Below are positions 5,166 through 35,224 of a DNA stretch of 36,582 nt, in pieces. The stretch's first letter is position 1, and the number at the start of each line of letters is the position of its first letter. A program made the position numbers and the translations under genes. The notes beneath the pieces were generated by a model, which saw only the letters and a program-made list of their open reading frames with translations, was not told where the DNA came from and did no database searches. Source of the stretch: Nitrospinales bacterium (GTDB taxonomy: Bacteria; Nitrospinota; Nitrospinia; Nitrospinales; JAJDAT01); contig JBHHYO010000019.1 of assembly GCA_046757665.1 (NCBI GenBank), forward strand, positions 1 through 36,582, read 5' to 3'.

Positions 5166-5212
5166 TCTATTTTACTCCACGAAAAATCAGGAAAGGAAAA
5201 ATAATCTCAATC

Positions 5213-5260
5213 CCGCACTTTTATGCGGATAACCCGTGAGATTTCCATCTGCTCTCACGG
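5213..5260 (-). terminator. Tandem hairpins downstream of the sigma54 activator gene
   Basis: CCGTGAGA(5234-5241)/TCTCACGG(5253-5260) and CCGCA(5213-5217)/TGCGG(5224-5228) lie just after the stop at 5268. The U-tract is not immediately adjacent. Confidence 0.35.
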
Positions 5261-5267
5261 TCCCGGA

Positions 5268-7982
5268 TTAATCGAAACTGTGGCGCACCAGATCCTCAAC
5301 CGAGGCGTGATATTGAATGGGAAGGTTTTTTGCCCGCTTGAGGGCATCCATGACAGCCTCCTCCGCCGTTGTAAACTCCCTGGCGGTCTGGATCAGGTTG
5401 TCATGGTATTCGGCGATTCTCTGCAAAACCAAATCGTAAGAGTTGCCGCCGCGGCAGATTTCACGCGCCGTTTTTTCCCGGTCCAGCCGGTTTTTCACCA
5501 GCAAATCGAAACAGATGCCCTTGAACCGGGACGCCACGGTGTTGCGGCTCATGTTAAGCCGCACGGCGGTTTCCTTGATTTCGAAACGGTTCTCCCTCAG
5601 GGCGCCCAACAAAATCTCGTCCCCTTCCCGGCCCGTAACCGTTTTGCGCGATCCCGCCGGGACGCCATTCTCCGCTTCCAGCCCCAGGTCTTTTTCCCGG
5701 ACCAACTCGGTTTCGCAAAGCGTGATGCCGCGCTGAACGATGTTTTCCAGTTCACGAATGTTGCCGCGCCAGGGATGATTCAACAGCGTCTCCATCGCCC
5801 GGTCGGAAATGCCCTGGATGTTCTTGCCGTATTCGGCCCGGTACCGTTCCATGAAATGCCGCACCAGGATGGGGATATCCTCCTTCCTCTCGCGCAACGC
5901 CGGCAAGGTCACGGTGATGGTGTTCAACCGGTAGTACAGGTCATCGCGGAACCGGCCGGCGGCGATTTCCTCCTGAAGGTTTTTGTGCGTTGCGGCAACG
6001 ATGCGGACATCGACCTTAAACGCCGTCCCGCCCACCGGCTGAACCTCCTTGTCCTGCAACACCCGCAACAGCTTGACTTGAATATCCTTGCCGACGTCGC
6101 CGATCTCGTCGAGGAACAGGGTGCCCTCGTCGGCTTCGGCGAATTTTCCCTTTTGGGTGGAGACGGCGCCGGTGAACGCGCCACGGGCATGACCAAACAG
6201 CTCGCTCTCCACGAGAGCCTCGGGAATCGCCGCCATGTTGACGGCAATGAACCGCTTGTCCCGTCTGCCGCTCAACTGGTGCAAGGCACGGGCGAACAGT
6301 TCCTTGCCCGTCCCCGACTCGCCGAGAATCAATATAGCCGACGTCACGCCCGCCGACTGCTTGAGGGTGCGGAACATTTCCAAAACCTCCCGGTTTTGCG
6401 TGATGATGCCGAATTGCAGACATTCCGCCCTCAACCGCTCAAGCTCGCCTTCCATCCGCACTTCGTCAAAGGAAATATGGACGCGCAAATCCAGTACCTT
6501 GTTTTCCAGTTCCCGGCGCTCTTTTTGCAATCTTTCCTTGTCTTCCAGAACCAGTTGCAGATTGTGTTGCAGGCCGGCGATTTTTTGCGTCTGCTCCTCG
6601 CCACGCCGGCGGCCCTTTTCGATGCCCTCGCGCATCTCATGCAACAGCAGGCCGATTTTTTCCAGCTCCTCCTCCTTGCGCGACAGGTTCGCCGAAATGG
6701 ATTCCAGATGCGACTCCACGCGGCGCTTTTCCTTCAGGAGAACGTCGGAGATGCCTTTTTCCTCCTCCGTCCGGTAAACGGAAACCAGCAGGGCCGTCAG
6801 CGCCATGGCAAACAGGGGCGTAAACAGCGGCGCCACCCATCCCGCGTTGAACAGCGCCAGATTGACCGCCGGATACCCCGCGGCCAGCGACAGAAACAAA
6901 CCAGCCTGGGAAAAATAACTCCGCCGCCCGAAAACCGCCGCCGTCGCCAGACACAACAATAAAATCAGCGTATGATCGGTGGACTTGTGAGTCTCCCTTA
7001 AAAAGTTGCGCGTCAGCAGGGTGTTGATGATGTTGGCGTGAATGCCGCCGCCGGGAAAATCCTTTTCGATGGGAATGGGTTTGATGTCGTGCCCGGATAG
7101 CGTATTGGACACCAGCACCAGCCTGCCGCGCAAGTCCTCGCCCCGGTCGGACGGCCCGTCGGCAAGAACGGACGCGAAGGAAGCGTGCTTGAAAGTTTCC
7201 GTCCAGCGGCCGGCGTAGTTGATGAGCATCTGCCCCTTGTCGTCGATGGGGATGCGAAGATCGACGCTTTCCCCCGTTTCCGGAAACCGCGCCCGCTCCA
7301 ATATAATGTATCCCTTGACCACCCCGACACCGGACGCGGGAACGCTCAAGTAGTTCAAAACCGCTTGCAAGGCCAGCGACGGCATCAGCTCTCCCCCATA
7401 GCGCACGAGCAGGGGAACGCGGCGCACCACGCCGTCGGCGTCGCGGTTGGCGGCAATGTGGCCCAGCGCTCCGGCCTCCAGCGCCAACTGCGGCAGAGGC
7501 AGGATCGCATCGCCCACGGCAAAAAAATCCGCGGCGGCGGGGGACGAGGAAATACCGTTTTTCAAGGAAAGCCCGTCGGCCCGCGCTCCCACCGTGTCCG
7601 CTGACTCCGACAAACTCACGGCGGCGGGAAAGATCACGTTGCCGGCGCTTTTCACGGCGCCGACCAGGGCCAGGTCGGAATTATGGTCGTCGGGCCGGGC
7701 GAACAAGATATCGTAGGCGATCACCCCGGCGCCCCGGCTGTTCAGAAAGTCAATCATCGCCGCGTGCACGGAGCGGTCCCAGGGCCAGCGGCCATAGCGC
7801 GCCGCGGCGGCATCGTCGGCATCCACCATCACCAGCGCCGGGGCGGTCTCGATGGCGCCGCGCAGGCGGAGCCGGAAATCGTAGGTCTTCAACTCCCACG
7901 ACCGGAACAGATCGTCCAGCCCGGCGGCCAGCACAATCGCAATCAACGCCCCGCCCAGTCCCAGCAATAATTGTTTTTTCAT
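5268..7982 (-). CDS. Membrane-bound sigma54-dependent activator with CHASE2 sensor domain
   Basis: N-terminal TM; CHASE2 motifs ([50 protein letters not shown]); three TM helices; coiled coil; Walker [48 protein letters not shown]; Fis-like [16 protein letters not shown]. Confidence 0.92.
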
Positions 7983-8010
7983 AATGCAGTTGACAGTGAC
8001 CGGTTCTTGT

Positions 8011-10128
8011 TCATTCCAGTTTCTCCTCTTTACCGAGGGTGCCGAGCATGTCGATGGGTTTTTTGGGTTTTAAAACCAGCGGCACTTTCCGCGACCCGCG
8101 GAAGTAGGTTTTTTCCCTCTCATAAATAAAAATTTCCGTGTAGGCCTGCGCCCAGGCGGTGGCGGTGTCCGGCGAAAACCGCTCCGCCATGACCCGGATA
8201 TCGCGGTTGCCGCGCGTTGTGCCGCGCTCGATGCTGTGGAATCCCTGTTCCAGGTCAAGCTCGATGGGCGAACCGGGGGTCAGCGTCGCCACCGCCTTGA
8301 TGCGCTCCAGCCCCGGCGGCCCCTGAACGTCAAACCTGAATCCGTAACCCGGACTGGGAATCTGGTACACGATCCCCGCCTCCACGAAATTGTCGCGCCG
8401 GTACTTGTTGGGAAAGATCACCGTTATATTGCCGTCGGCGCCGATGTCCAGCAGTGTCAGGTAACAATCCCGGTCCGATTTAATATTGAACGTGATGGTG
8501 TCGCCGATGCGGTAGTCGGTTTGATCGACCCAGACTTTCACGTTAAACGCGGGATGGGACGGCCGGGCAAAGATCAGTTGGTTCAGGTCGGCGTCGTAGC
8601 CGCCGGCGAACGGTTTGCCCTGCAATGCCGGGTTCTCCAGCGCGGCCAGGTCGCCGGGATAAATTTCGCTTCTGGCGATCCGCGCCCGCGCCGAGGACAG
8701 GATGTGCCCGGTCGCCGTTTCGGTCAACTGCGCCCGAAGTTCCAATCCCCGATTTTCCATGCGGTAGGAACCGGAGATGTAGAAATCCAGTCCGGCGCTT
8801 TTGGCAACGTCGCCGAGGGACTGGTTTTCTGCGGGCGGCGGGGCCTCCTTGACCGTCAGGTTTTCCGCCTGTACCAGGATGGTTTTGAAATCCTCCCGCA
8901 AAATCCTGCTGAAGGGCACGACCCGGTTCAACCGCAAGTCCCTGAACTCGACGATGCCGACGGTGGGACTGCCGCCGGGCGGGATGTTGCGGATAACCTG
9001 GTTGACCATGTCGGTGACGCCTCTTTTCCAGGCGAGGGTTTTCCCCGGGCCCCATTCCGGAGTTTTGACGGAAAAATGAAACACCGTCCTGGCGCCGCGC
9101 AGGGGAACCAGGAATTTTTCCGCCGGCCCGACCTGCAAGCGGGAAGCAATCTGGTCATAATCGAAACGGGCGGAAACCTGCTGGTTCTTTTTCTCCAGGT
9201 CGCGGATGTTGCGGACAGTGGTTTGCGCCGTGCCGTCGGCGGCGCTGGTCTTTTTCGCCTCCAACTCGCCGTCGCCCCGGTCGAACTGAAACACCACGGG
9301 AATGCCGTGGACCGGTTTTCCCTTGAAACTCACCCGGACGGCGAGAGGTTCGGGCAGTCCGCCGATGGACTGGACGACCTGCCCGTCGCCGGAGCCGACG
9401 GACAAGTCCAGGCTGTGCACGACCTCGTCGATACGGTCGGCAAAATCCCTGGCGCCGAGCGCACCACCGCCCGGAATTTCCGACGCCCGAATGATGACGC
9501 GCCGGGCGCTTTTCAGCGGCAGTAACGGCAAGGCGGCGCGGTAGCCGAAAAGATAATGAGACAACGCGCCCACCACCTCGCCCGCCGCCTCGTGTTCCCG
9601 ACCCTGGCGCATGATCTCCGGCAGACGCGATTCAATCCCGGCGATCCGGTCGCGTATCGCCGCCGCCGCAAGCTCGCGGCGCAAAACCGCAAACGAATAA
9701 TAAACTCTTTTCGCCGCGTCGTACCATCCGTCCTTGATCTCCACACCCTCGAGAATGGTATCGACCTGGGTCTCCACCACCAGGCGAAGCCGGGTGCTCT
9801 CCTCGGTGGATACGTCGCGCATTACCGAGCTGATTTTGACCTTCAAGGACTTGGCCAGTTCCGAGCGGGCGGACTCGTTGGCGGATACGGCGTTTTCTCC
9901 CGAAACCCCCACCCCGGTCAGATAGCGGCTTGCGGGAAAGCCGGGATGGCCCTTGCCGATGACCCAGGCAGGTGTTCTGGGAGGGAGCGGCTTCTCGGTG
10001 CGCACGGCCGGAGCAACGGGCGCCGGGCCTTTTTCGCGGGCCGCCCCGCTCCATCCCGCGCAACCGGACACCAAGCCAAGAATGACCAGGAAAACCGTGG
10101 GCCGAATCATTATTCTCATCGTATCCAT
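8011..10128 (-). CDS. Multidomain lipoprotein: LPP20 + Ig-like + FlgO/TolB-N-like + DUF4384
   Basis: Lipobox LVSGC; LPP20-like PAWV..RYLTGVG..ARSELAK; Ig-like GDGQ..LPEPLAVRV..GIPVVF..AADGTAQT; FlgO-like VGIVEF..ISGSY..TATGHILSSA; DUF4384-like VWVDQTDYRIGDTITF..CYLTLLDIGADGNITVIFPN. True start is an ATG at 10128, 10119 or 10110; the track start at 10203 lies inside the predicted promoter. Confidence 0.82.
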   Translation of the reverse strand: MDTMRIMIRPTVFLVILGLVSGCAGWSGAAREKGPAPVAPAVRTEKPLPPRTPAWVIGKGHPGFPASRYLTGVGVSGENAVSANESARSELAKSLKVKISSVMRDVSTEESTRLRLVVETQVDTILEGVEIKDGWYDAAKRVYYSFAVLRRELAAAAIRDRIAGIESRLPEIMRQGREHEAAGEVVGALSHYLFGYRAALPLLPLKSARRVIIRASEIPGGGALGARDFADRIDEVVHSLDLSVGSGDGQVVQSIGGLPEPLAVRVSFKGKPVHGIPVVFQFDRGDGELEAKKTSAADGTAQTTVRNIRDLEKKNQQVSARFDYDQIASRLQVGPAEKFLVPLRGARTVFHFSVKTPEWGPGKTLAWKRGVTDMVNQVIRNIPPGGSPTVGIVEFRDLRLNRVVPFSRILREDFKTILVQAENLTVKEAPPPAENQSLGDVAKSAGLDFYISGSYRMENRGLELRAQLTETATGHILSSARARIARSEIYPGDLAALENPALQGKPFAGGYDADLNQLIFARPSHPAFNVKVWVDQTDYRIGDTITFNIKSDRDCYLTLLDIGADGNITVIFPNKYRRDNFVEAGIVYQIPSPGYGFRFDVQGPPGLERIKAVATLTPGSPIELDLEQGFHSIERGTTRGNRDIRVMAERFSPDTATAWAQAYTEIFIYEREKTYFRGSRKVPLVLKPKKPIDMLGTLGKEEKLE

Positions 10129-10198
10129 CCCGGTGCCAGGGAATAAACGGAAACCGCAAAACCGTTTCCGGAACCACGAACGTCTGGAAAACGTTATG

Positions 10199-10215
10199 AG
10201 CAAAACCCGTGCCTA
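10199..10215 (-). promoter_or_regulatory. Sigma54 (-24/-12) promoter of the leftward lipoprotein/activator operon
   Basis: Minus strand TAGGCACGGGTTTTGCT has one mismatch to YTGGCACGNNNNTTGCW. Confidence 0.7.
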
Positions 10216-10329
10216 AGTCCGGTTCTCGAGTCAAAAACCACCGCCACCCCGGACCTTTTGGCTCCTGCCGGGCCCACGGGCCCCAATCGCGACAGACAAG
10301 GGCCGCCCGCCCGGAATCCGAACAGCCCC

Positions 10330-10375
10330 TTCCATGCATGGTTTGGCATTCAATACCATGCATCCATGCATGGAA
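10330..10375. promoter_or_regulatory. Nested palindromic cluster (3x CCATGCAT), candidate enhancer/UAS
   Basis: TTCCATGCATGG (10330-10341) and CCATGCATGGAA (10364-10375) are inverted copies. ATGCATGGT (10334-10342) also pairs with ACCATGCAT (10355-10363). Lies between two divergent sigma54-like promoters. Confidence 0.5.
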
Positions 10376-10522
10376 CCGGGCATGAATACCCGCGAACGAC
10401 ATCGCATCGACGCACCGAACAAGGAAAAGGTATGGCGGAACGCGGAAAATTTACCTATAATTTTTGTGTAACCGCTTTTAATCCCTATTCATCGGCATTT
10501 TCCCGGATTGTGACGACAGTTT

Positions 10523-10538
10523 TGGCATCCAAATTGTA
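10523..10538 (+). promoter_or_regulatory. Sigma54-like promoter of the rightward LPP20/trypsin operon
   Basis: TGGCATCCAAATTGTA: good -24 element and correct spacing, with TTGT instead of TTGC at -12. Confidence 0.5.
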
Positions 10539-10644
10539 TCAACAATAGTCAAGCGATCTCAAACAGAAAAGCAAACGGCGCCCGACGGACTGCCGCAACT
10601 TTGCTTACCGATTGAACTCACAAACTTTTTCGAGGAGAAATTCC

Positions 10645-11247
10645 ATGTCACAGCAGAAAAGCTTATGGGCCGTCGTGGGAGGGATTTTAATTGTATCGCT
10701 GTTCAGCGCTTGCGCCAGCACTCCCCCGCTTCCGCCCCAGCGAGCTACGTTAAAGGATGTCGAACCGCCCGATTGGGTTATGCGCGGCGGCGGGGCTTTC
10801 GAGGACTCCGACGGCAAGGCATTTTACGGCATCGGGTCGGCGGCCGGCATCAAAAATTATTCCCTGCAACGAGTCGCCGCGGACGACCGCGCCCGCAACG
10901 ACTTGGCCAAGGTGTTTGAGTTTTACACCAAATCCCTCACCAAGGATTACATGGCCAGCACCACGGCCGGCGATTTCGAAGCCAGTTCAGAAGAACAAAA
11001 CGTCGAGTCGGCCATCAAAACCATCACCTCCGCGACCCTCAACGGCGTCGTAATCATCGACCACTGGGAGCACCCGCGCCGGAACGAACTGTTTTCCCTG
11101 GCACGCCTGGACCTGGAAAAGTTCAAGCAAAATCTGGATCACTACAAGGAACTGTCGCAGGAAGTCCGGGACGCCGTTAAAAAGCGGGCGGACAAACTGC
11201 ACGAGGAACTGGAACGGGAAGTCCTGAAAAAGGAAGGGAAGATTTAA
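10645..11247 (+). CDS. LPP20-family lipoprotein
   Basis: ATG at 10645 after GAGGAG; lipobox FSAC; PPDWV..GKAFYGIGSA..AADDRARNDLAK..LNGVVIIDHW..LFSLARLD. Confidence 0.85.
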   Translation: MSQQKSLWAVVGGILIVSLFSACASTPPLPPQRATLKDVEPPDWVMRGGGAFEDSDGKAFYGIGSAAGIKNYSLQRVAADDRARNDLAKVFEFYTKSLTKDYMASTTAGDFEASSEEQNVESAIKTITSATLNGVVIIDHWEHPRRNELFSLARLDLEKFKQNLDHYKELSQEVRDAVKKRADKLHEELEREVLKKEGKI

Positions 11248-12233
11248 TGCGAATCCTGCCGTTCCTGGTTATTACCCTGTTGACCCATACCTCGCTGTCG
11301 GCGGCGGCGCTGGATTTCGACCCGAAACAGGTTTACCGGGAAACCGCTCCGGCCGTGGTGCTGATTGCCGCTTTCGATCCCCGGCAACCAAATCAGAGCC
11401 TGGGTACCGGCGCCATTATCCGCTCCGACGGGCTGGTGCTCACCAACGCCCATGTCATTTTCAGCGACAAGCTCGGCCGGCCTTACAGCAAGTTGCGGGT
11501 CTTTCTCAAACCGCGCCACATCACCGGCAACATCAAAAAAGACACCACACGCAAACACAAAGCCCGGCTACTCAATTATTCGACCTCGCTGGACCTGGCG
11601 CTACTGAAAATCCAGGGAGGAGCCTCTCCGTTTCCGCACCTGGAATTTGCCGACTCCAGCCGCATCGAAATCGGCGAACCGGTACTGGCCATCGGCCACC
11701 CGGAACAGGGAGGACTCTGGACCCTGACCACGGGGACGATCAGCAGTCAGATCGAAAATTTTCAGGAGATTGCCGGGAAGAACGTGTTCCAGACCGAAAC
11801 CAGCATCAACAAGGGAAACTCGGGCGGCCCCTTGATCGACCGGTACGGCGCCATGGTGGGCATCAATTCCAATATCGCCCGCGAGGGCAAAGGCGGGCTG
11901 GTCATCACCGACATCAATTTTTCCATCAAATCCAACGTTGCCCTGCGCTGGTTGGATTCCCTGGGTTATTCGTTCGTTCCCGCCGTTCCGGGAGCCTTTG
12001 CGGCGATGCCTTCCCTTCCGCAGGAGGCGGGCATCGTGCCCATGGAGGAGCCGCCGTCCGCCAAGCCACGCACCGCGGTCCCCGGCGAGCCGCGCATCCT
12101 GACCGACCGCCACCCCTACAAGGCGGAGGACCTGCGCCAACAGGTGGAAACGGAAATGGAAAACATGATGGAAGAAATGCGAGGCAAGATTCGGAGCGGC
12201 CGGCCGGCGGCAAAAACCCAAAAGACGAACTGA
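11247..12233 (+). CDS. Exported trypsin-like (S1C-like) serine protease without PDZ
   Basis: Signal peptide; catalytic triad motifs LTNAHV, DLALLK, INKGNSGGPL; TAATG overlap with the upstream gene. Confidence 0.92.
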   Translation: MRILPFLVITLLTHTSLSAAALDFDPKQVYRETAPAVVLIAAFDPRQPNQSLGTGAIIRSDGLVLTNAHVIFSDKLGRPYSKLRVFLKPRHITGNIKKDTTRKHKARLLNYSTSLDLALLKIQGGASPFPHLEFADSSRIEIGEPVLAIGHPEQGGLWTLTTGTISSQIENFQEIAGKNVFQTETSINKGNSGGPLIDRYGAMVGINSNIAREGKGGLVITDINFSIKSNVALRWLDSLGYSFVPAVPGAFAAMPSLPQEAGIVPMEEPPSAKPRTAVPGEPRILTDRHPYKAEDLRQQVETEMENMMEEMRGKIRSGRPAAKTQKTN

Positions 12234-17143: not shown

Positions 17144-17724
17144 TGCCGAAATTCATGACTTGCCGAATCTGTCGAGCCATTGCCGTTTTGCTGGCCGCCG
17201 CGGCGTGCGTTTTTCATGTCGCCTGCTCGCGCGAGCCCGCCGCCGACCGCGCCGCGCCCGCCGCGATGAACATGGGCCGCGACCATGAAAAACCGCCGGA
17301 GTTCGACCACAGCGATCCCGAAAACCAGCGGCGGATGGGCATTTACCATTACAACGAAGGCAACAAGTTCCTGCGCAAAAACGATCCGCTGGAAGCCATC
17401 CGCAATTACAAAATGGCCCTGCACCACTCGCCGGATTTCCCGGAAGCCTCCATCAACCTCACCACCGCCTATTTGCAGGCCAAGCAGTTCGACGAAGCGC
17501 ACAAAGTCTTGCAAACCCTCCAGGAGAAAAATCCGAAAAACCCCATGCTGTTTTATAACCTGGCTTGCTATTATTCGCTGACATCGAAGGCGGACGCCAG
17601 CCTGGAAGCGCTGCAAAAAGCCGTCGCCCTGGGATACAAGGATTTCCGCTCGATCCGCTCCGACCCCGACCTGGCAACCCTCCGCAAAGACCCGAAATTC
17701 ACTGCCTGGATCAAGAGGTTTTAA
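17143..17724 (+). CDS. Exported TPR-repeat protein (possible lipoprotein)
   Basis: Hydrophobic N-terminus ending VACS; TPRs YNEGN..AIRNYKMAL..PDFPEA and YNLACYYSL..ALQKAVALGY..DPDLATLR; TGATG overlap with the upstream gene. Confidence 0.85.
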   Translation: MPKFMTCRICRAIAVLLAAAACVFHVACSREPAADRAAPAAMNMGRDHEKPPEFDHSDPENQRRMGIYHYNEGNKFLRKNDPLEAIRNYKMALHHSPDFPEASINLTTAYLQAKQFDEAHKVLQTLQEKNPKNPMLFYNLACYYSLTSKADASLEALQKAVALGYKDFRSIRSDPDLATLRKDPKFTAWIKRF

Positions 17725-17840
17725 CAAAGACTCTCTTTTTGATCGTTTAAATCCGGCCTAAATTATTTTGCTCACCCCTACCGGAAAATTCCTTGGCTTC
17801 AAAGCATCTTATGAGTTATTCTTCAAAAAGAAAGTGTTTG

Positions 17841-17860
17841 CTGGCGTTGCACTTGCAAGT
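17841..17860 (+). promoter_or_regulatory. Possible sigma54 promoter with overlapping 10-bp palindrome
   Basis: CTGGCGTTGCACTTGCA (GG-N10-GC) at 17841-17857; palindrome ACTTGCAAGT at 17851-17860; RBS GGAGGT at 17875-17880. Confidence 0.35.
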
Positions 17861-17886
17861 TAAATCCGCGCATTGGAGGTTCAGCC

Positions 17887-18801
17887 ATGTCTGGGAAGTG
17901 GAAGGAGGTTGTAAGATTGCGCTTTAAGGGCGACCGCTATCGGGATCATGCTCTTGATTTGACCGCCTTGAAAAAATTAGGACAATTCCAGAAAATGGTC
18001 GCGGAAACTGCCAAGGAGTTGTGGCGATCAGCTAACCCGGATCGGGAAAGATTACCCAGACATTTTGACGAGCGAACCCGGTTGTGTCTAAGAAAAATCG
18101 AGGACGGAAGTGCAACGGCTCCGCTGGAAGTTTTCATTGACGAGGAAGATCAGACCTCGTTCCTGGACCCGGAAGCAAAGGAAATTGAAGAAGCGATTGA
18201 GCTGACATATGGCGTTTTCGAGGCAGTGGATAAGGAACAACCATTACCTAAAAGCTTCCCTCAACCCCTGGCTTCGGAATATGCCCGGTGGGCGCAGGAA
18301 ATCGAGGAAGGAGAGGAAATCGAAATCCAGCCACCTCAAAAAAAACAAATCAGGATAACCGCCGAAACGGCTCAACGTCTTGCCGTATTTTGCGAAGAAT
18401 CCCATGAGGACTATGTGGACCTGATTGGAGAAGTACTTGAAGCGGATGTCCGGCAAAAACAGTTTCAATTATGGATCGATGACAAGGCCAAAGTTTTGGC
18501 AAGTTTTACCGAACATCAGGAAACTGAGGTAACTACCGCGTTAAGAGATCATAACTCCGTAAGGATGAGGATAAAAGGAACCGCCGAAATCAACTCCCAG
18601 GGGAAGGTGCTCAGGATAAAAACGGTTGAGGAGTTGACTATTTCACCTGCAAAGGAAACTGACTTCGATACCTCAGCCAAACCTATCGGGCAAATACTGG
18701 AAGAACTTGGCAAAGAGGTTCCGCAAGAGGAATGGGATAATCTTCCTGGTGATTTGACGGATAACCTTGACCACCATATTTATGGGACACCAAAACATTG
18801 A
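17887..18801 (+). CDS. Large hypothetical protein with C-terminal VapB-like antitoxin tail
   Basis: Strong RBS; AT-richer than the flanks; ends KPIGQILEELGKEVPQEEWDNLPGDLTDNLDHHIYGTPKH; stop overlaps the PIN gene start (TTGA). Confidence 0.75.
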   Translation: MSGKWKEVVRLRFKGDRYRDHALDLTALKKLGQFQKMVAETAKELWRSANPDRERLPRHFDERTRLCLRKIEDGSATAPLEVFIDEEDQTSFLDPEAKEIEEAIELTYGVFEAVDKEQPLPKSFPQPLASEYARWAQEIEEGEEIEIQPPQKKQIRITAETAQRLAVFCEESHEDYVDLIGEVLEADVRQKQFQLWIDDKAKVLASFTEHQETEVTTALRDHNSVRMRIKGTAEINSQGKVLRIKTVEELTISPAKETDFDTSAKPIGQILEELGKEVPQEEWDNLPGDLTDNLDHHIYGTPKH

Positions 18802-19217
18802 AGACGGTTTTTGTTGACACACTCTACTGGGTCGCCCGAGCAAAAACAAATGACCCTTGGGCTGATTCGGCTAAAAAAGCTGAGCAAAATTTGGGTAATG
18901 CTTTATACGTTACTACGGACGAAGTATTGACCGAATTTCTAACCCTTTTGTCGAAAGGAGGAAAAAAATTACGAAAAAAAGCCACCTTAATGGTGCACGC
19001 TATCCTGAATAACCCAAATGTCAGAGTGGTTCCTCAATCCCGCAATTCGTTTTTGAAAGGTTTGGAGTTTTATGAAGAACGAAATGATAAGGAATATAGC
19101 CTGACCGATTGTGTTTCGATGAATGTCATGAAAGCTGAGAATTTAAAAGACGTTTTGTCCAACGACCATCATTTTGAGCAGGAAGGATTTTCAATTTTGA
19201 TCAAACAAAAAAGCTAA
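18798..19217 (+). CDS. vapC: PIN-domain (VapC-family) toxin
   Basis: VFVDT, TTDEVLTE, YSLTDCVS and SNDHHFEQEGF supply the acidic PIN tetrad. Confidence 0.92.
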   Translation: MKTVFVDTLYWVARAKTNDPWADSAKKAEQNLGNALYVTTDEVLTEFLTLLSKGGKKLRKKATLMVHAILNNPNVRVVPQSRNSFLKGLEFYEERNDKEYSLTDCVSMNVMKAENLKDVLSNDHHFEQEGFSILIKQKS

Positions 19218-19231
19218 GACACACTTAGCTT
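19211..19231 (-). terminator. 8-bp hairpin over the vapC stop, with T-tract on the minus strand
   Basis: AAGCTAAG-ACACA-CTTAGCTT, followed on the minus strand by TTTTGTTT. Confidence 0.35.
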
Positions 19232-19301
19232 GATGTGCATGAAACCTCCCGTGAAAGGGTCTCCAAGGCCCGTTGCCCAAAACTATTAAAGTCCGTTTAC
19301 A

Positions 19302-19388
19302 TGTCATTCTGAACGAAGTGAAGAATCTCATGTTTTGATTTGTAGAGAGCAAGAGATTCTTCGTCGCCTTCGGCTCCTCAGAATGACA
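19302..19388. repeat. Palindromic REP-like element
   Basis: Perfect 11-bp terminal inverted repeat TGTCATTCTGA/TCAGAATGACA plus inner 10-bp inverted repeat GAAGAATCTC(19320-19329)/GAGATTCTTC(19353-19362). Confidence 0.8.
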
Positions 19389-19466
19389 CCCTTTTGAGAA
19401 CACTCCCATGCCACTGTCGGGGGTACCGGGGGTCAGGCTTGGGTTAATCTTTTTTCCATACCTCTA

Positions 19467-19532
19467 TGGCGGGTTTGCTTCAAGTGGCGGAACGGCTCTG
19501 CCTTTGATGTTGAAATCGTGGATTACCATTAA
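19467..19532 (+). pseudogene. higB: 3' remnant of HigB (RelE/ParE, plasmid maintenance killer) toxin
   Basis: Translates WRVCFKWRNGSAFDVEIVDYH*, the canonical HigB C-terminus, 17 nt before higA. No start codon lies between the in-frame TGA at 19395 and the remnant. Confidence 0.85.
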
Positions 19533-19549: not shown

Positions 19550-19852
19550 ATGGCCAAACAACTAACCCCCATCCCACCGGGGGAAATCCTCCTGGAAGAG
19601 TTTATGAAGCCGATGGGAATCAGCCAGAACAAACTGGCCCGTGATATCGACGTCTCCATTGCCCGGATCAACGATATTGTCCACGCCCGCCGCGGCATTA
19701 CCGCCAACACGGCTTTGCGTCTGGGCAAGTATTTTAAAACCACCCCGGAGTTCTGGATCAATTTGCAGGGGAGGTATGACCTGAAAATTGCCCGGCGGGA
19801 TGTTTGGCCTTCCATTGAGAAAAATATTCGCCCGATTCAGCGGGTGGCTTGA
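19550..19852 (+). CDS. higA: HigA-family addiction module antitoxin
   Basis: PPGEILLEEFMKPMGISQNKLA..RINDIV..RGITANTALRLGKYFKTTPEFWINLQ; RBS GGGAG. Confidence 0.95.
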   Translation: MAKQLTPIPPGEILLEEFMKPMGISQNKLARDIDVSIARINDIVHARRGITANTALRLGKYFKTTPEFWINLQGRYDLKIARRDVWPSIEKNIRPIQRVA

Positions 19853-19913: not shown

Positions 19914-21092
19914 TTACTCGTTTTCTTTTTTGTCGGTGGGGATCAAGCGGATTTTGCCGTCCTGGCCGACGGCCAGTCCCATGCCGCCTTGCAGGATCGA
20001 CGCCAGGGAGGAGCCGATCAAATCTTTTCGCCATCCTTTCAGCAGGCCGTTGCCGTCCAGCTTCTTGTTTTGCTCATAATATTTGACGAAATCGCGGATT
20101 TGCCCGCGGTCCGCGAGAACGGTGGGTTCGATTTTCAATTCCTCGGAGCGGCTCTGGATATAGGCGACAAGAAGCCCCTCGACGCCGGGGTTGGTGGAAT
20201 AGCTGGCCGTTTCCGGTAAAACGGGGAATTGATCTCTCGGAACAGCCAGGCCTTTCTGCACCACCCGCAAAATCTCTTCCCCGCAACGGGAAACTTCTTT
20301 GCGGTGGAATCCGCGAATGGAGGCCAGGATGGCAAGGTCCCTGGGCAAAAGCCTTGCCACCTCCAGCAAGGGTTCGTCGCGAACGACGCTTTTGGGATGG
20401 CAATCCCTCCGCATGGCTTCTTCCTCCCTCCAGGCGGCAAGCTCCACAAGCACGGCGAGATTTTTTGGTTTTAAACCGCGGATGTTTTTTATTCTGCGAA
20501 ACTGTTGCCGCGGTTCCGGAGGCATGTAGCTTTTCGGGTCTTCCAGCGACTGGAATTCATCCCGCACCCAATCGAGGCGGTTCAGTTTTTTCAGGCGCGC
20601 CAGAATATTTTCATAAACGGGAACCAGGAAACGCACATCGTCCAAAGCGTATTTGATCTGATTGTCGCTCAAGGGTCTGCGGCACCAATCGGTATAGGTT
20701 TCGGTTTTATCGATTTTCTTTCCGGTGGTTTTGTAAACCGCCTTGGCGAAGGAAATCTGCGCCCCCCAGCCCAGCAGGGACGCCGCCACCTGGGTATCGA
20801 AAACGGGTTTGACCGCGGCCCCGCACAACCGGTACAGGATTTCCAAGTCCTGTTTTCCGGCATGGAAGACTTTCAATATTTCGGGGTTCTTGATGATTTC
20901 CAGAAGGGGATCGATGCTTTTGACGGCAATGGGATCGATGGCGGCATAAACGCCGTTTCCACCAACCTGGATAAGCCCCAGGTGGATGGAGTAGGTTTTC
21001 TCCCGCATAAACTCGGTATCAATAGCCAGCCATTTGCAACCGTCAAGTTGCTTGCAAAAATCGACCAGATGGTCTTCGGTTTTTATATACAT
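19914..21092 (-). CDS. rnd: Ribonuclease D
   Basis: AIDTEFMREKTY, KVFHAGKQDLEI, FDTQVAA, DWCRRPLS, YALDDV; HRDC region; C-terminal GWR. Confidence 0.96.
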   Translation of the reverse strand: MYIKTEDHLVDFCKQLDGCKWLAIDTEFMREKTYSIHLGLIQVGGNGVYAAIDPIAVKSIDPLLEIIKNPEILKVFHAGKQDLEILYRLCGAAVKPVFDTQVAASLLGWGAQISFAKAVYKTTGKKIDKTETYTDWCRRPLSDNQIKYALDDVRFLVPVYENILARLKKLNRLDWVRDEFQSLEDPKSYMPPEPRQQFRRIKNIRGLKPKNLAVLVELAAWREEEAMRRDCHPKSVVRDEPLLEVARLLPRDLAILASIRGFHRKEVSRCGEEILRVVQKGLAVPRDQFPVLPETASYSTNPGVEGLLVAYIQSRSEELKIEPTVLADRGQIRDFVKYYEQNKKLDGNGLLKGWRKDLIGSSLASILQGGMGLAVGQDGKIRLIPTDKKENE

Positions 21093-21231
21093 AACATGCG
21101 GTTTTCGGGAATCAGGAACCGGAGGCCAGCATTCAGACTACAAAGGACGCCCTCGCACCGGGCGATTTTTGGCGCTCTTTGCATTTTGTGGGCTTAAATT
21201 TTGGCGATCTGTCCTTAGAGGCATTCGGTTT

Positions 21232-21260
21232 AAAATAAATCCCAACCCCGGTTTTGTCAA
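21232..21260 (-). promoter_or_regulatory. Sigma70-type promoter for rnd
   Basis: Minus strand TTGACA-N17-TATTTT. Confidence 0.55.
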
Positions 21261-21413
21261 GAAATTAGAAACTTCTCTCTACTACTGTGGAATAAATTTC
21301 AGTCAAAGCATACATACTATTCTAAACGGATTATCGCCCAAGGTCGAATTTATTGCTGAAAATCGTTTATTAACAAGGACTTTTTTACCGATCTTTTTAA
21401 TCGCCGAAATTAT

Positions 21414-21442
21414 TTGACTTTTCCCTCACAAAAACCTATCTT
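21414..21442 (+). promoter_or_regulatory. Sigma70-type promoter for tsaB-ydcH
   Basis: TTGACT-N17-TATCTT, 76 nt upstream of the ATG at 21519. Confidence 0.55.
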
Positions 21443-21518
21443 GATTTTTAGAAGGGTTTTGCAATTGAGGCGCAAATCGCATCCCATTCGACTTTCATTA
21501 CAGCCTATTCTCTCAAAA

Positions 21519-27126: not shown

Positions 27127-29602
27127 TGACCAGGGGATCGGCCCACCAGCGTTGAACGGTCGTCTGGTATACCGGATGGCCCTCGTGGTCCACCTTGGCT
27201 TCCAACGCCGGCAGGGTGTTGCCCTGCCAGTCGACTACGGCTCCCAGGTTGCCGGCCAGGATTCGCTCTTCCACGGCCTGGCGGGAGAACGTACCGTCTT
27301 CATAATTCCAGCCGTTGGCGGAACCGTCGGAGGAGGTCACGTCAAACTTGACCAGATGAATGTGCTGGCCGATGGTATCGGTCGGGGTTTGAACCTGGAA
27401 GTCGTCCACCTCCAGTTCCGCCGGCGTACGGTTGGTGTGAAAAAACCGTACGCATTCCCCGGAGAGTACGCGGAAGAAAAAAGGATTGGCTTTCTTCAAT
27501 CGGCCTTCGAATTTTTTTACTTCTTTATCCAACACGTTGATTCGCGCCTGGGGGTCATGCCAGCCGGCGGCATTGACCAGCAAGTCCAACTGAATGGCGG
27601 AGACGCGGTAATCGCGGGTCGTGGTTACCGAACCAAAATCGTCGCTGATACAGGGATCGGCAAAAGGAGATCCGGGTTGCGCCGGGCGGCCGTTAACCAA
27701 CATCCTGTCCGGGTCACCCTCCGGTGTAACGTCGGGATATCCTCTTTTCCCGTCCGCGAATAACTGAGCATCACTGCCGTGATATTTCATGGCCGCCTGC
27801 TCCAGCGGCGTGCCGTTTTGTGGAAGCACCTGGATCGTGGCCGTATGCAGTTCCGTAGAAAAATCCGCCGCCGCCAGGTCTTCATGAGTTGTCCGGCTAC
27901 CGTTCAGAATCACGTGACGAGGCAGGCCCGCATCTTCCTGAATATCCATGGGCGCTTGAGGCGCCCGATGACCGGCCTTGCCGGCAATGTAAAACGGATA
28001 CCCCGGCATGGCCGTTTCACCGGTTGCGACAGTGGCCGGATAAGTGGGCGGAGGCGCCATGCCTTGATTGGGCATCGGAACAATTGCCGGAATCGGAGTT
28101 CCCCCGACCGTCTCGCCGGTTTGGGGGTCCGTGCCGGAACCCAGTTCGCCGTCCGGCAATCGGCGCGATCCATCCTCGAAAACGTCATGCACCCGCCACA
28201 ACTCCCACATGCCCTGGGCGAAATGAGGATACAAATGACAGTGGAAAATGGAGTCGCCCGGAGTCAGATTGCGGTTGCCGCCCCCACCGTAAAAAATATT
28301 GTAGGTGAAACCCTGCTGAGGCCCTATGGTCTGCGAGTCGAGATAGGTTCCCGTACCGGCTCCGGGACTTTGCGAAATCCACTGATGGGCATGAAGGTGA
28401 AAAACGTGAGTCTCCTTGGGCCCGGCATGGATATTGCGAAAGCGGACGTTATCGCCCAAATAACTGTGATGCACGTTGGAGGGATCATCCTCATACTGAG
28501 TCAACAAGGCGGGGTCTCCATTGGCCCAGGATTGCAAAAAGAATTCCTCATACAAACATTCCACGCAATCCTTGGCCGGTCCGGTCTGCAATCGGTTGGC
28601 AAAAAGAATCGTGCCCAGGCCGCTGGCGCCATAGTTGATGCCGAACCCGTCGCGAATACCCTGCAACTGGTCCTCGGTGCCCAGAATTTGAAATGCGTTC
28701 TGGTAAACCGTTTTCAGTTCGCCGTGAAAAATGACGCTGAATTCACGAAACCAGTCCAGAGATTCTCCCGTACCGCTGTCCGGAGGCACCGGGAAACCGG
28801 TGATCAATGCGTTCAAGTCGCCGTGGCGAATTTCCAACCGTTCCGTGCCGTCGGCGTCCTGGCCAAGGGATTGCAGGATGTTCAAAACAGGAACGCCTGC
28901 AACGTCAACCGCCTCGTAATTCAAAAAAGCCGGAGCGACGGCCTGTTCCCGCGCCATCAGCATCTCCGCTTCGGAGACCTGGCTACGATAGTACTTACTC
29001 CCCTGGGGCTCGGCATTGATGGCGCCAAACAAACCATGAACGATGCTACCGCCGTCCCCCTGGCCGCCTGCCGGAGCGGCGTTGCTGAAAAAAAAGTAAG
29101 TCCCTTCCCGCTCGATTTTCCATCGATAAGTGATCGTTTCACCAGGCGCAACTCCGGAAATCCCGGTGTTGGATGAATCGTGATTGTCTCCAGTCACAGG
29201 TTGGGAAACAAGGCCGGAAGCCACGATGGAAGCCAGGCGAGTGGCGGGCCAGTCCGTTCCCGGCGTATCGGCGGCCAACAGATTGGTGAACCGGACTTCC
29301 AGAATGTCCCCGACATTGGCGCGTAGCACCAGCGGCCGGGGGCGTTTGCCCGCCCGCAACCGCACTTGACCGGGCACGCCTCCCTGCTCGTCGATAGGAG
29401 TCCCCAACTCGTCCACCACGTCATGGCGGAGAGCGTAAATCATCCCATAAGGATTAAAGGATCCAAAACGGTTGTAGGTAATGACCTGGTCGAGAGCAAC
29501 CACGTCGGCAAAAATGATCCGACCCTGGCTTTGTTGCGCGTAAAGCTTCGTTGGCGAATACTCCGAGAGACCGGCAATTAAGCCCAGCACAAAAAAAAGC
29601 AA
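26870..29602 (-). CDS. MnxG-like giant multicopper oxidase, N-terminal part (homologous to 27062; frameshifted)
   Basis: ADVVALDQ..YNRFGSFNPYGMIYAL, RPRPLVLRANVGD; Cu motifs HVFHLHAHQW, HCHLYPHFAQGM, QHIHLVKFD and THDHF. Removing one base at about 27061 joins the two parts into a 1531-aa ORF (25006..29602). Start codon uncertain. Confidence 0.85.
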   Translation of the reverse strand: MLFFVLGLIAGLSEYSPTKLYAQQSQGRIIFADVVALDQVITYNRFGSFNPYGMIYALRHDVVDELGTPIDEQGGVPGQVRLRAGKRPRPLVLRANVGDILEVRFTNLLAADTPGTDWPATRLASIVASGLVSQPVTGDNHDSSNTGISGVAPGETITYRWKIEREGTYFFFSNAAPAGGQGDGGSIVHGLFGAINAEPQGSKYYRSQVSEAEMLMAREQAVAPAFLNYEAVDVAGVPVLNILQSLGQDADGTERLEIRHGDLNALITGFPVPPDSGTGESLDWFREFSVIFHGELKTVYQNAFQILGTEDQLQGIRDGFGINYGASGLGTILFANRLQTGPAKDCVECLYEEFFLQSWANGDPALLTQYEDDPSNVHHSYLGDNVRFRNIHAGPKETHVFHLHAHQWISQSPGAGTGTYLDSQTIGPQQGFTYNIFYGGGGNRNLTPGDSIFHCHLYPHFAQGMWELWRVHDVFEDGSRRLPDGELGSGTDPQTGETVGGTPIPAIVPMPNQGMAPPPTYPATVATGETAMPGYPFYIAGKAGHRAPQAPMDIQEDAGLPRHVILNGSRTTHEDLAAADFSTELHTATIQVLPQNGTPLEQAAMKYHGSDAQLFADGKRGYPDVTPEGDPDRMLVNGRPAQPGSPFADPCISDDFGSVTTTRDYRVSAIQLDLLVNAAGWHDPQARINVLDKEVKKFEGRLKKANPFFFRVLSGECVRFFHTNRTPAELEVDDFQVQTPTDTIGQHIHLVKFDVTSSDGSANGWNYEDGTFSRQAVEERILAGNLGAVVDWQGNTLPALEAKVDHEGHPVYQTTVQRWWADPLVNASGADRTIGTVFTHDHFAPSSHPATRFLQRDAGGARGLPMVETQRETAEKGCWNPGDHSERRRPNSSSGSSGVCHGRGGFCVTL

Positions 29603-29708
29603 TCCGATTTTTTGTGCTTTCGTCGCGCCCCTGACTCCTCGATTGGAAAAAAAAAATTTTTGGCCCCCCTCAGAAGTTACGCCGTTTGTTTTTCCATGGA
29701 GAGTTGAA

Positions 29709-29728
29709 TTTACAAATCAAATTGTAAA
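29709..29728. promoter_or_regulatory. Inverted repeat upstream of the multicopper oxidase, candidate operator
   Basis: TTTACAA-ATCAAA-TTGTAAA. Confidence 0.3.
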
Positions 29729-29966
29729 AAGATGTTCTATTTTAAACAAAAAGGCACCGAGAGAGGAATCATTGCAACTTTGTTTTTTTGTAGACATAAT
29801 TGGGTGACAGCTTGTCGTTGTTTGTTCGACAAAAAAGAGGCCGATCCCCTTCATTAGGTAGGTCTTTATACATAAGTGAAGAATCTCCGCTTATGCAAAG
29901 CTCTCTTCTGGAAAGGGGACTGAGGGGGGGGATTAGTTCGATTCGATTATTGACGTGCGCGCCGGG

Positions 29967-31250
29967 TTACGGTCTCAACCCTTTGCCGGAAAGTTGCAAA
30001 CGGCTTCTCCACGCCGTTGAGCCTTTTCGCCGCGGCAAGATGGCGCCCGCAACAAGCCTCGCCAGAAACTTCACCGACACCACTTCCGCCGCCGGGAGAT
30101 AATCGCCGATCACCCCCACCAACCGTTTGGCCAGGGACGGATTTTCGGCGAGGGTTTTCACTACCCGTACGCAAAGGCGCGGTTTGTAAATCAACTTTTG
30201 CAGGATTCGGCTCAGCACAAACTTTTTGTGAAACTCGGTCTGCCGGACAGCCTCGTACCCGGCAAAACGCCGCCGGGAAAAATCCGAGGTTTTAAAAGCC
30301 GAATCGACGGTTTGCGCCGCCAGTTGCGCGCTTCGCAGGGACAGGTAAATCCCCTCTCCCGTAAACGGGTCGATAAACCCCATCGCGTCACCGACGAGGG
30401 CCAATCCGCCGCAACCGGGACTCTTCACCGCATAGGCAAGCGACTCGACGGTACGCGGTTTTTCCGCCGGCACGGCATCCGCCAGCAATTGTTTGCGCCG
30501 CGGGTCTCCCAAAACGGTGCGGACATAAAAATCCCCGGCCTCCCGGCCCTTGAGCAAGTGCGAATCCACGACAAGAACGACATTGACCGAGTCTCCGCCG
30601 ACCGGCGCGATGCCCGTATAACCGGGCCGGCTGACGTGCATACAGCAATAATTTTCCCGAAACCGCGTTCCCCGCCAATGCGCCGCGATAGCCATTCTGC
30701 CGGAACCTTTCACGGGTTTTTTCAGGTTGAGCCTGCGAATCGACACGCAGTTTCTTCCGCCCGCGTCCACCACCACGCGAGCTTTCAATGTGAAAGGCGT
30801 TTTTTGATTGTCCCAACCCTTGACGCCGACAACCCGGCCGTCTTGAAAAAGCAAGTCATGGACCTTGTGCCACTCGCGGACCTCGACACCCATCTTTCGC
30901 GCCTGCTGCAACAGCACGTTGTCCAACACCATCCGCGGAATGGAAAGGCTGGTCATCCGCTCCGTCCGGCCCGGCATTGGCGGGTAATCAATATAAACCT
31001 CACTTCTGCCGTAGGCGGAAATATACACCCCGTTCAACCTCAAGGGCGATTGCGCTTCCAGGGACGGCAGGACCCCCAGCTCGTCTAAAATGGCATCCGC
31101 CGCCGGACTGATGAATTCGCCGCAAACCTTGTCGCGGGGAAATCCCGCCTGGTCCAAAACGACCACCCGATACCCTTTGTCGGCCAGAAACAAAGCCGTT
31201 GCCGTACCCGCGGGGCCAGCGCCAATGATTACCGCATCAAAAGGTTTCAT
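29967..31250 (-). CDS. FAD-dependent oxidoreductase (geranylgeranyl reductase/FixC-like)
   Basis: FDAVIIGAGPAG, FPRDKVCGEFISP, VVVDAGGR, LVGDAMGFIDPFTGEGIY. ATG at 31250. Confidence 0.92.
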   Translation of the reverse strand: MKPFDAVIIGAGPAGTATALFLADKGYRVVVLDQAGFPRDKVCGEFISPAADAILDELGVLPSLEAQSPLRLNGVYISAYGRSEVYIDYPPMPGRTERMTSLSIPRMVLDNVLLQQARKMGVEVREWHKVHDLLFQDGRVVGVKGWDNQKTPFTLKARVVVDAGGRNCVSIRRLNLKKPVKGSGRMAIAAHWRGTRFRENYCCMHVSRPGYTGIAPVGGDSVNVVLVVDSHLLKGREAGDFYVRTVLGDPRRKQLLADAVPAEKPRTVESLAYAVKSPGCGGLALVGDAMGFIDPFTGEGIYLSLRSAQLAAQTVDSAFKTSDFSRRRFAGYEAVRQTEFHKKFVLSRILQKLIYKPRLCVRVVKTLAENPSLAKRLVGVIGDYLPAAEVVSVKFLARLVAGAILPRRKGSTAWRSRLQLSGKGLRP

Positions 31251-34911: not shown

Positions 34912-35129
34912 TCACTCCTCGCCATCTACCCGTCAGCAGTGAGCATAACCTGCCTGATCTACCCATAAACCGCGGTTTCGTACCTCCCCCGGCAATCTTT
35001 AACCTCTTCATTACTTTAGAATACCGAAAGCGCTGTTCAACGCAACGGTACATTAATATTTAAAATTAGTTCACCCTATTTCAGACCGTCAATCTTGTCC
35101 AATATTTTCATAAAATCGAAAATCGCGTC

Positions 35130-35158
35130 TTGAAGAAAAACACTTCTTCTGATATGAT
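35130..35158 (+). promoter_or_regulatory. Sigma70-type promoter for the sensor kinase
   Basis: TTGAAG-N17-TATGAT with extended -10 TG. Confidence 0.45.
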
Positions 35159-35224
35159 GAAACGCTTTGAATATCCAATTCCTCCAGCCATACTGCGGGG
35201 GGAAAAATCGTATCCAAAAGGTTT

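Follow-up and report, generated by a model that had tools for sequence, protein, structure and literature searches.

The window, a 36,582-nucleotide contig of a Nitrospinales bacterium (JBHHYO010000019.1, GenBank assembly GCA_046757665.1), carries on its forward strand two overlapping genes, called here A and B, which are the subject of this analysis. Gene B encodes a PIN-domain protein of the VapC ribonuclease type and gene A, directly upstream of it, encodes an antitoxin-like protein built of three parts. The pair, referred to below as A-PIN, is a real, widespread and unnamed variant of the toxin-antitoxin (TA) modules. It is linked to defence and combines parts of VapBC and PDC-M32A. The two genes and the parts of protein A are the following.

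17887..18801, plus strand: gene A, an open reading frame (ORF) with an ATG start, coding for a 304-residue multidomain antitoxin-like protein (N domain, OB fold, tail)
17887..18396, plus strand: N-terminal alpha/beta domain of protein A, residues 1-170, taken from the AlphaFold2 model; no known fold found
18400..18657, plus strand: OB-fold domain of protein A, residues 172-257, acidic, assigned by fold searches
18658..18798, plus strand: C-terminal tail of protein A, residues 258-304, a predicted PIN-binding element, assigned by its motif, its linkage to PIN and the complex model
18798..19217, plus strand: gene B, an ORF with a TTG start that overlaps the stop codon of gene A, coding for a 139-residue VapC-type PIN ribonuclease toxin

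The two genes share four bases, TTGA, at 18798-18801. At the corresponding junction of relatives the start codon is ATG in 11 of 12 loci and GTG in one (ATGA and GTGA overlaps), and a second set of relatives has 43 ATGA and 11 GTGA junctions. An earlier note, made from the sequence alone, had placed the tail at 18679-18801, given the overlap as 4 nucleotides and described the DNA around the pair as AT-richer than its flanks; the sequence and its GC content agree with all three statements. The genome to which the window belongs has a single copy each of the PIN subfamily, of protein A and of the tail.

The product of gene B is recognized as a PIN domain by Pfam (PF01850, E 4.6e-8, above the cut-off). 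Its nearest relative of known structure is the 23S rRNA endonuclease VapC20 (PDB 5wzf, E 1.7e-6), and the acidic tetrad, consisting of D7, E46, D104 and D123, is invariant in an alignment of 13 family members. None of the PADLOC models matches the protein at E≤1.

Protein A matches no family of Pfam or NCBIfam. Its AlphaFold2 model, calculated with 33 homologues, has a pLDDT of 79.6 and consists of an alpha/beta domain (residues 1-170), a beta-barrel (172-257) and three short helices (267-299). The barrel resembles the OB folds of RPA, SSB, MCM and LysRS. The best Foldseek match is RPA with an E value of 9.6e-4; the VIA Z scores of 6.9-8.7 (rmsd 3.0 with 72 residues aligned for the top match) fall in a range that this tool calls common, and the matches are uniformly OB proteins. 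The N-terminal domain has a pLDDT of 86.5 when modelled alone, and a comparison of this model with solved folds gave nothing convincing, the best Foldseek match in the PDB having an E value of 0.029 and the best match of the wide VIA search a Z score of 5.6. In the ESM Atlas the domain is related to hypothetical clusters and to one structural neighbor with a TM score of 0.66, which is a lead only. DUF7946 is carried by 39% of the members of this neighbor and DUF7947 by 23%; a literature search by name found no mention of either. An alpha/beta domain followed by a probable OB fold is what had been read from the sequence beforehand, and both the model and the fold searches agree with that reading. 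The two domains together are referred to below as the N+OB unit.

All three parts of protein A are acidic. The isoelectric point of the OB domain is 5.18 (family median 5.31), and the values for the OB domain and the whole protein lie at 4.9-5.3. The acidity of the OB domain is an indirect hint against the binding or sensing of nucleic acids. No DNA-binding family reaches its Pfam cut-off in protein A; RHH_10 attains only 13.8 bits, compared to a cut-off of 27, at an E value of 0.072. The earlier note had proposed that the DNA-binding part of an antitoxin was replaced here by a sensor of a phage protein or nucleic acid. The replacement is supported, the sensor would be a conjecture, and the acidic OB domain speaks against the nucleic-acid part of the proposal.

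The tail has the motif EEW..LP.DLTDNLDH(H/Y)(I/L)YG. Eight of its residues do not vary across 33 sequences: W283, P287, D289, L290, L294, D295, Y299 and G300. The complex of the tail (residues 250-304, with the protein A alignment) and the PIN protein (with the alignment of the PIN family) was modelled in three runs. The ipSAE score was 0.91 in all three, compared to 0.00 for the best control, no less than 95% of the contacts are common to the runs and the pLDDT of the partners is at least 82. For comparison, 58 of 80 solved complexes and 2 of 110 mismatched pairs attain this mark. Residues 8-9, 11-21, 46, 49-58, 61-75 and 101 of the PIN protein make contacts with residues 258-299 of the tail. 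The modelled interface thus takes in E46 and residues adjoining D7 and D104, which suggests that the active site is occluded rather than presented. Such a model had been put forward in advance as a check of tail-PIN binding; the modelled complex does not contradict neutralization, and in silico there is good support for the tail's predicted role as an antitoxin.

The tail is consistently found with this PIN subfamily. A PIN profile search confirmed 243 loci, of which the best 80 were kept for a survey of the upstream genes. The coding sequence of the tail lies immediately 5' of PIN in all 80, whatever the head of the protein to which the tail belongs. The head is N+OB at 41 of the 80 loci, the OB domain only at 7 (2 of these are cut by the contig end) and something else at 30, and 2 are unclassified. 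The Pfam scan of the other heads covered 20 of the 30 and, in addition, one small ORF from a separate locus, L030. It found an AF2212-like domain in small tail proteins of 104-106 residues (two above the cut-off, with E values of 5e-6 and 7e-8, and two weak) and a MarR winged helix. It also found the GIY-YIG-like T5orf172/MUG113 domain joined to the tail in six proteins (L054, L056, L072, L075, L078 and L079; upstream ORFs of 164-296 residues), one of the scores being just under the cut-off. These six make up another large class of partners for this PIN subfamily.

Further loci have minimal proteins of 60-85 residues that end in the same tail, and small ORFs of 60-113 residues with a terminal tail motif stand before PIN homologues, in agreement with the likeness to small antitoxins of this PIN subfamily to which the earlier note had pointed. 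A word-based search for short tail proteins gave one candidate, P0121, which is 119 residues long and has a different head and the same tail. The tail, of about 45 residues, is therefore a portable element that is tied to one VapC20-like PIN subfamily, not to the head. That in protein A it is appended to some 260 residues of unrelated sequence had also been pointed out; the part in question, about 255 residues, is unrelated to the usual DNA-binding domains of antitoxins, and the 80 loci support a tail that behaves as a module.

Some other occurrences of the tail are worth recording. Other upstream heads of about 276-327 residues are found at L064, L065, L070, L077, L087, L097 and L109. At L142 (1073-3066, minus strand) a 525-residue N6 DNA methylase (PF02384, E 6.9e-11) has the tail motif at its end and a PIN of the subfamily after it, so that the methylase itself seems to carry the predicted toxin-holding tail. 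At L141 (1105-2901, minus strand) the tail-like motif stands at the start, not the end, of a 180-residue ORF that comes after a type I HsdS (Methylase_S, E 1.6e-15); no PIN was recognized beside it.

The conservation of the pair is established by several searches. A word-indexed search with protein A gave 476 homologues at E≤1e-3. The best 120 of them are 298-374 residues long and 54-66% identical to protein A at 98-100% coverage, and those with names are called hypothetical. An exhaustive profile search gave 2444 cluster representatives at E≤1e-3, of which 223 reach E≤1e-30; among the best 150 of the 2444, 137 reach profile position 297 or beyond and hence include the tail. The fusion is thus found in hundreds of full-length homologues and is not peculiar to this assembly, a possibility that the earlier note had named as one that would count against its reading. 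PIN lies directly 3' of A at all 15 loci with downstream DNA, out of 17 loci from metagenome-assembled genomes (MAGs) of Desulfobacterota type, Planctomycetota and Gammaproteobacteria; the other two are cut inside A. The family of protein A occurs in 2 of 120 genomes of the window's own phylum, so that it is rare, with a patchy spread of the kind expected for mobile accessory genes, and in 6 of 401, 6 of 401 and 14 of 401 genomes of three other phyla (seed genomes included and a match to any part of the profile counted). Plasmids gave only three weak partial matches, all of them PDC-M32-like hypothetical pairs.

The N+OB unit is also found without the tail. The PADLOC model of PDC-M32A matches protein A over residues 6-253, which correspond to positions 4-253 of the 375 in the model, with an E value of 4.8e-44. 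A true PDC-M32A of 385 residues is 30% identical to protein A over 255 residues. A true member covers model positions 4-370 (E 7e-101), whereas protein A fails the full-length match. In place of the tail, true PDC-M32A has a different C-terminal domain of 120 residues, and the gene of PDC-M32B follows directly. Four of five non-seed matches in a sample of Pseudomonadota are PDC-M32A/B pairs directly after a putative HsdM ORF, which we take to be HsdM of a type I restriction-modification (RM) system from its C-terminus, read by eye. The proposal that PDC-M32B is a divergent PIN was rejected at the level of sequence; the PIN protein of gene B and PDC-M32B have no sequence similarity. At one locus (L133, 2650-3074) the PDC-M32B-like gene after a PDC-M32A-like gene is split into ORFs of 64 and 68 residues, which could be due to a frameshift or an assembly error.

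A third form occurs at L022 (3001-4110), where an MNT nucleotidyltransferase joined to N+OB replaces the tail and the fusion stands between type III mod (908 residues) and res (925 residues) genes. No HEPN gene paired with this fusion is visible in L022. Conservation of the N+OB unit extends to relatives of about 26-30% identity, and three different output parts are found joined to it. On the strength of these comparisons it is portable, being combined with the tail, with the PDC-M32A C-terminal domain and PDC-M32B, or with an MNT domain.

The PDC systems, as part of the preprint by Payne et al. (10.1101/2024.01.29.577857) describes them, are 145 untested candidates nominated for their embedding in BREX, DISARM or type I RM. 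PDC-M32 was found by name in one paper only, which, in the part of its text that was available, lists it in a rhizobial prophage (PMC12429752). Searches of article full texts gave no description of a fusion of the tail with N+OB, nor of a PIN pair placed between mod and res of a type III system. The earlier note had left room for the pair to be an already catalogued family: part of protein A does match the PDC-M32A candidate, but the partner, gene B, differs from PDC-M32B.

The relatives of the pair have a context that the pair of the window lacks. At L001 and L008 the gene order is MTase_III (E about 1e-163), A, PIN and ResIII helicase, with gaps of a few bases. The mod and res proteins of this type were compared by tblastn with all loci, which include 44 distinct contigs with N+OB and the tail; 27 of the 44 are covered by only 1.8 kb of flank per side. 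In 7 of the 44 the pair is directly flanked by type III genes of one family that are intact or cut by the contig end, at L001, L006, L008, L015 (with L061, from the same MAG), L081, L086 and L080, where the mod gene is downstream. The type III match at L080 is only 28% identical. Three more (L002, L004 and L016) have only a remnant of 37-81 residues of the mod C-terminus just 5' of A. The short form, consisting of the OB domain and the tail, holds the same type III slot at L059 and L050. Other neighbors of the pair are a type I HsdR (L007) and a protein with HKD and Snf2 parts (L004). In embedded copies, the start of gene A is no more than about one base away from the stop codon of mod. This leaves gene A without space for its own promoter or operator and argues against a head that serves autoregulation only. 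A connection of the pair with defence had been suspected from the sequence, and both the match to PDC-M32A and the embedding in type III RM operons of relatives point in that direction.

The window's own genome has a type III operon of the same family on another contig. It lies at L121 (G000:C5:42000-57000; 5195-11634, minus strand) and consists of mod (1001 residues), MNT (102), HepT (115) and res (932), with overlapping junctions. The identity to the L001 counterparts, 65-72% for mod and 67% for res, places the operon in the same type III RM family. The MNT protein is recognized as NTP_transf_2 (E 1.4e-12) and HepT as an RNase of that family (E 2.8e-24). The mod protein contains an inserted DUF559 (Vsr-like) domain, residues 590-696, that is absent from the 863-residue mod of L001. 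With A-PIN at this position in relatives and MNT-HepT in the window's own genome, the mod-res junction is a recurrent site for RNase TA cassettes. The A-PIN pair of the window is not embedded in an RM operon; it is a solo copy.

The pair shares features with several known systems and is identical to none of them. As in VapBC, the toxin is a PIN protein with a D-E-D-D tetrad and detectable similarity to VapC20, and the antitoxin gene is upstream, translationally coupled with a 4-nucleotide overlap, and has the predicted toxin-binding element at the C-terminus of its product. Unlike in VapBC, the antitoxin has 304 residues, and an alpha/beta domain with no solved fold, together with the OB domain, replaces the AbrB, RHH, PHD/YefM or HTH head. 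With no DNA-binding head on its antitoxin, the pair falls outside canonical VapBC. With PDC-M32 it has in common the N+OB unit and the organization as a two-gene cassette inside RM systems (for A-PIN, in relatives). The 120-residue C-terminal domain of PDC-M32A is, however, replaced by a 45-residue tail and PDC-M32B by the unrelated PIN protein. Furthermore, true PDC-M32 has been seen beside type I hsdM, whereas the A-PIN variant is in type III RM. The absence of PDC-M32B and the partial match of protein A mean that the pair is not PDC-M32 either.

The PrrC paradigm, as set out in part of the paper by Anantharaman et al. (2013, PMC3710099), is that of a latent RNase inside an RM operon, which is released once a phage disables restriction. 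Among functional analogies for the pair, PrrC is the nearest. As with PrrC and RloC, an RNase effector is encoded in the RM operon (here, of relatives), and the idea of a second line of defence after restriction has been disabled applies to both. The differences are that the effector here is a PIN and not a HEPN protein, that it has a separate antitoxin-like holder and not a fused ABC ATPase, and that the copy in the window is not embedded; any contact with the RM proteins would be conjectural. The HEPN-MNT (HepT-MntA) system occupies the same mod-res slot of the same type III family in the window's genome, and the relative of protein A at L022 carries MNT where protein A has the tail. The systems differ in toxin fold and in how the toxin is neutralized, MNT acting by nucleotidylylation. 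Panacea/PanA is a portable antitoxin domain and CapRel a fused sensor antitoxin. The likeness to these two is one of concept, that of a module reused with many partners and of an antitoxin part that reads a phage cue; here, however, there are two portable pieces, the tail with one PIN subfamily and N+OB with several outputs.

We favor, with somewhat more confidence than doubt, the reading that the pair is a two-gene TA-like module in which the tail holds a PIN RNase and N+OB is the input or regulatory unit, most likely in phage defence coupled to RM. Gene B would encode a PIN ribonuclease of the VapC type whose acidic tetrad is intact. The antitoxin would be the product of gene A, and only its last ~45 residues would neutralize: the three short acidic helices of the tail would wrap around PIN next to its active site. 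The first ~257 residues would be a conserved accessory unit, made up of a new alpha/beta domain and the acidic OB fold, that stands in place of the small DNA-binding or AF2212-like head of VapB antitoxins. This unit may be the regulatory or input part that decides when the tail lets go of the RNase, and its ligand would more likely be a protein than a nucleic acid. The most likely use would be in phage defence coupled to RM, with the RNase as a back-up in the manner of PrrC, and the pair in the window's genome would be a solo copy in a small AT-rich islet.

A further-reaching version is offered tentatively. In it, N+OB reads the state of the RM system or a phage counter-measure and signals to interchangeable outputs, and the mod-res junction is a docking slot for latent RNase back-ups. 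The systems would then constitute a new family of RM-guarding abortive infection, with the pair in the window as a free-standing member.

A number of points weigh against the favored reading. Toxicity, neutralization, the release step, the trigger and the phage phenotype are things that we infer, and N+OB is a presumed sensor. VapBC complexes have already been solved, and the tail-PIN model may therefore pass by its likeness to a known binding mode and is no proof of binding. PDC-M32 is a candidate that was nominated by embedding only. TA modules often sit in defence islands as mere stabilizers. No type III RM homologue was found in the flanks, within the coverage given above (1.8 kb per side for 27 of the 44), in 34 of the 44 contigs with N+OB and the tail. 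There is no RM or other defence gene among the neighbors of the pair in the window, and two pattern scans of viral contigs, a weak test, detected no relative.

Several of these points would suit an ordinary addiction or stress TA module, which is a possible but less probable explanation. The tail would neutralize, N+OB would be a scaffold that serves oligomerization, stability or the binding of its own operator, and the placement in RM would stabilize mobile operons. Such a module would account for the TA-like gene order and overlap, and for the 34 contigs with no type III RM gene in the flanks covered. It would also fit the small AF2212-like and MarR-headed antitoxins with which this PIN subfamily is paired elsewhere, as a result of which the large head is not needed for the pair, and the fact that the pair of the window adjoins a second TA remnant, with a higA-like gene, and not a defence gene. 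It is at odds with embedded copies of gene A that start about one base from the mod stop and have no promoter or operator of their own to bind, and with the acidity of the OB domain and the whole protein, in which no DNA-binding family was detected. Furthermore, conservation of N+OB to about 26-30% identity with three outputs suits an input module better than a scaffold.

It is improbable that protein A is a working partner of the PIN protein, with an OB fold that brings the RNase to its substrate or activates it and with the complex as the active form. OB folds often bind nucleic acids and the pairing of A with PIN is strict across phyla, as such a partnership would have it. However, the tail is also present on the minimal and AF2212-like small proteins, which have no OB domain, the predicted interface, which takes in E46 and residues adjoining D7 and D104, suggests occlusion, and the OB domain is acidic. 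Least probable of all is a decaying, non-working remnant in this genome, for which the TTG start of PIN (ATG in 11 of 12 relatives) and the neighboring higB-like frame, reduced to 44 codons, might speak, but both frames are intact and of full length, the four catalytic and eight invariant tail residues are kept, and TTG is usable as a start codon and preserves the 4-nucleotide overlap.

The analysis tells apart two portable parts, a 45-residue tail that goes with one PIN subfamily and a 255-residue unit that occurs within RM of types I and III with three outputs. If the N+OB unit of the favored reading is indeed an input domain, the pair would be a simple system for learning how infection or the loss of restriction switches a TA module on, a question still to be answered for most TA-based defences, and it would give a function to the PDC-M32 of PADLOC. 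In any case, the family, with its 2444 cluster representatives and no Pfam or NCBIfam model, could be given a name.

The immediate surroundings of the pair contain two further features.

17875..17879, plus strand: Shine-Dalgarno-like GGAGG, 7 nucleotides 5' of the ATG of gene A, read from the sequence
17501..19500, no strand assigned: AT-rich islet with the A-PIN pair, between a TPR gene and a higA-like gene, delimited by GC content, with the neighbors assigned by Pfam

The GC content is 0.43-0.49 across the islet, compared to 0.55-0.63 in both flanks. No sigma-70-like promoter was found 5' of gene A between 17725 and 17886, and the only repeat upstream of the gene is an imperfect inverted one of 18 nucleotides with arms 80 nucleotides apart, which is not informative. 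The neighbors of the pair, as identified by Pfam, are a Maf/MptE-like gene, a TPR protein gene, an XRE/HigA-like gene, an RNase D-like ORF and mutL.

Downstream of gene B, at 19398-19532 on the plus strand, there is an open frame of 44 codons that ends in ...WRVCFKWRNGSAFDVEIVDYH and stops just 5' of the intact XRE/HigA-like gene (HTH_3). Judged by eye, it resembles what is left of the 3' part of a HigB-type toxin gene; a Pfam scan of the frame gave no family. Nested inverted repeats with arms of 11-13 nucleotides lie just upstream of it, and the intervals 19254-19394 and 19550-19852 were noted alongside. Elsewhere in the window the GC content dips to about 0.37-0.46, compared to a background of 0.52-0.63, at 1-2500, 21001-21500, 29501-30000 and 35001-36000.

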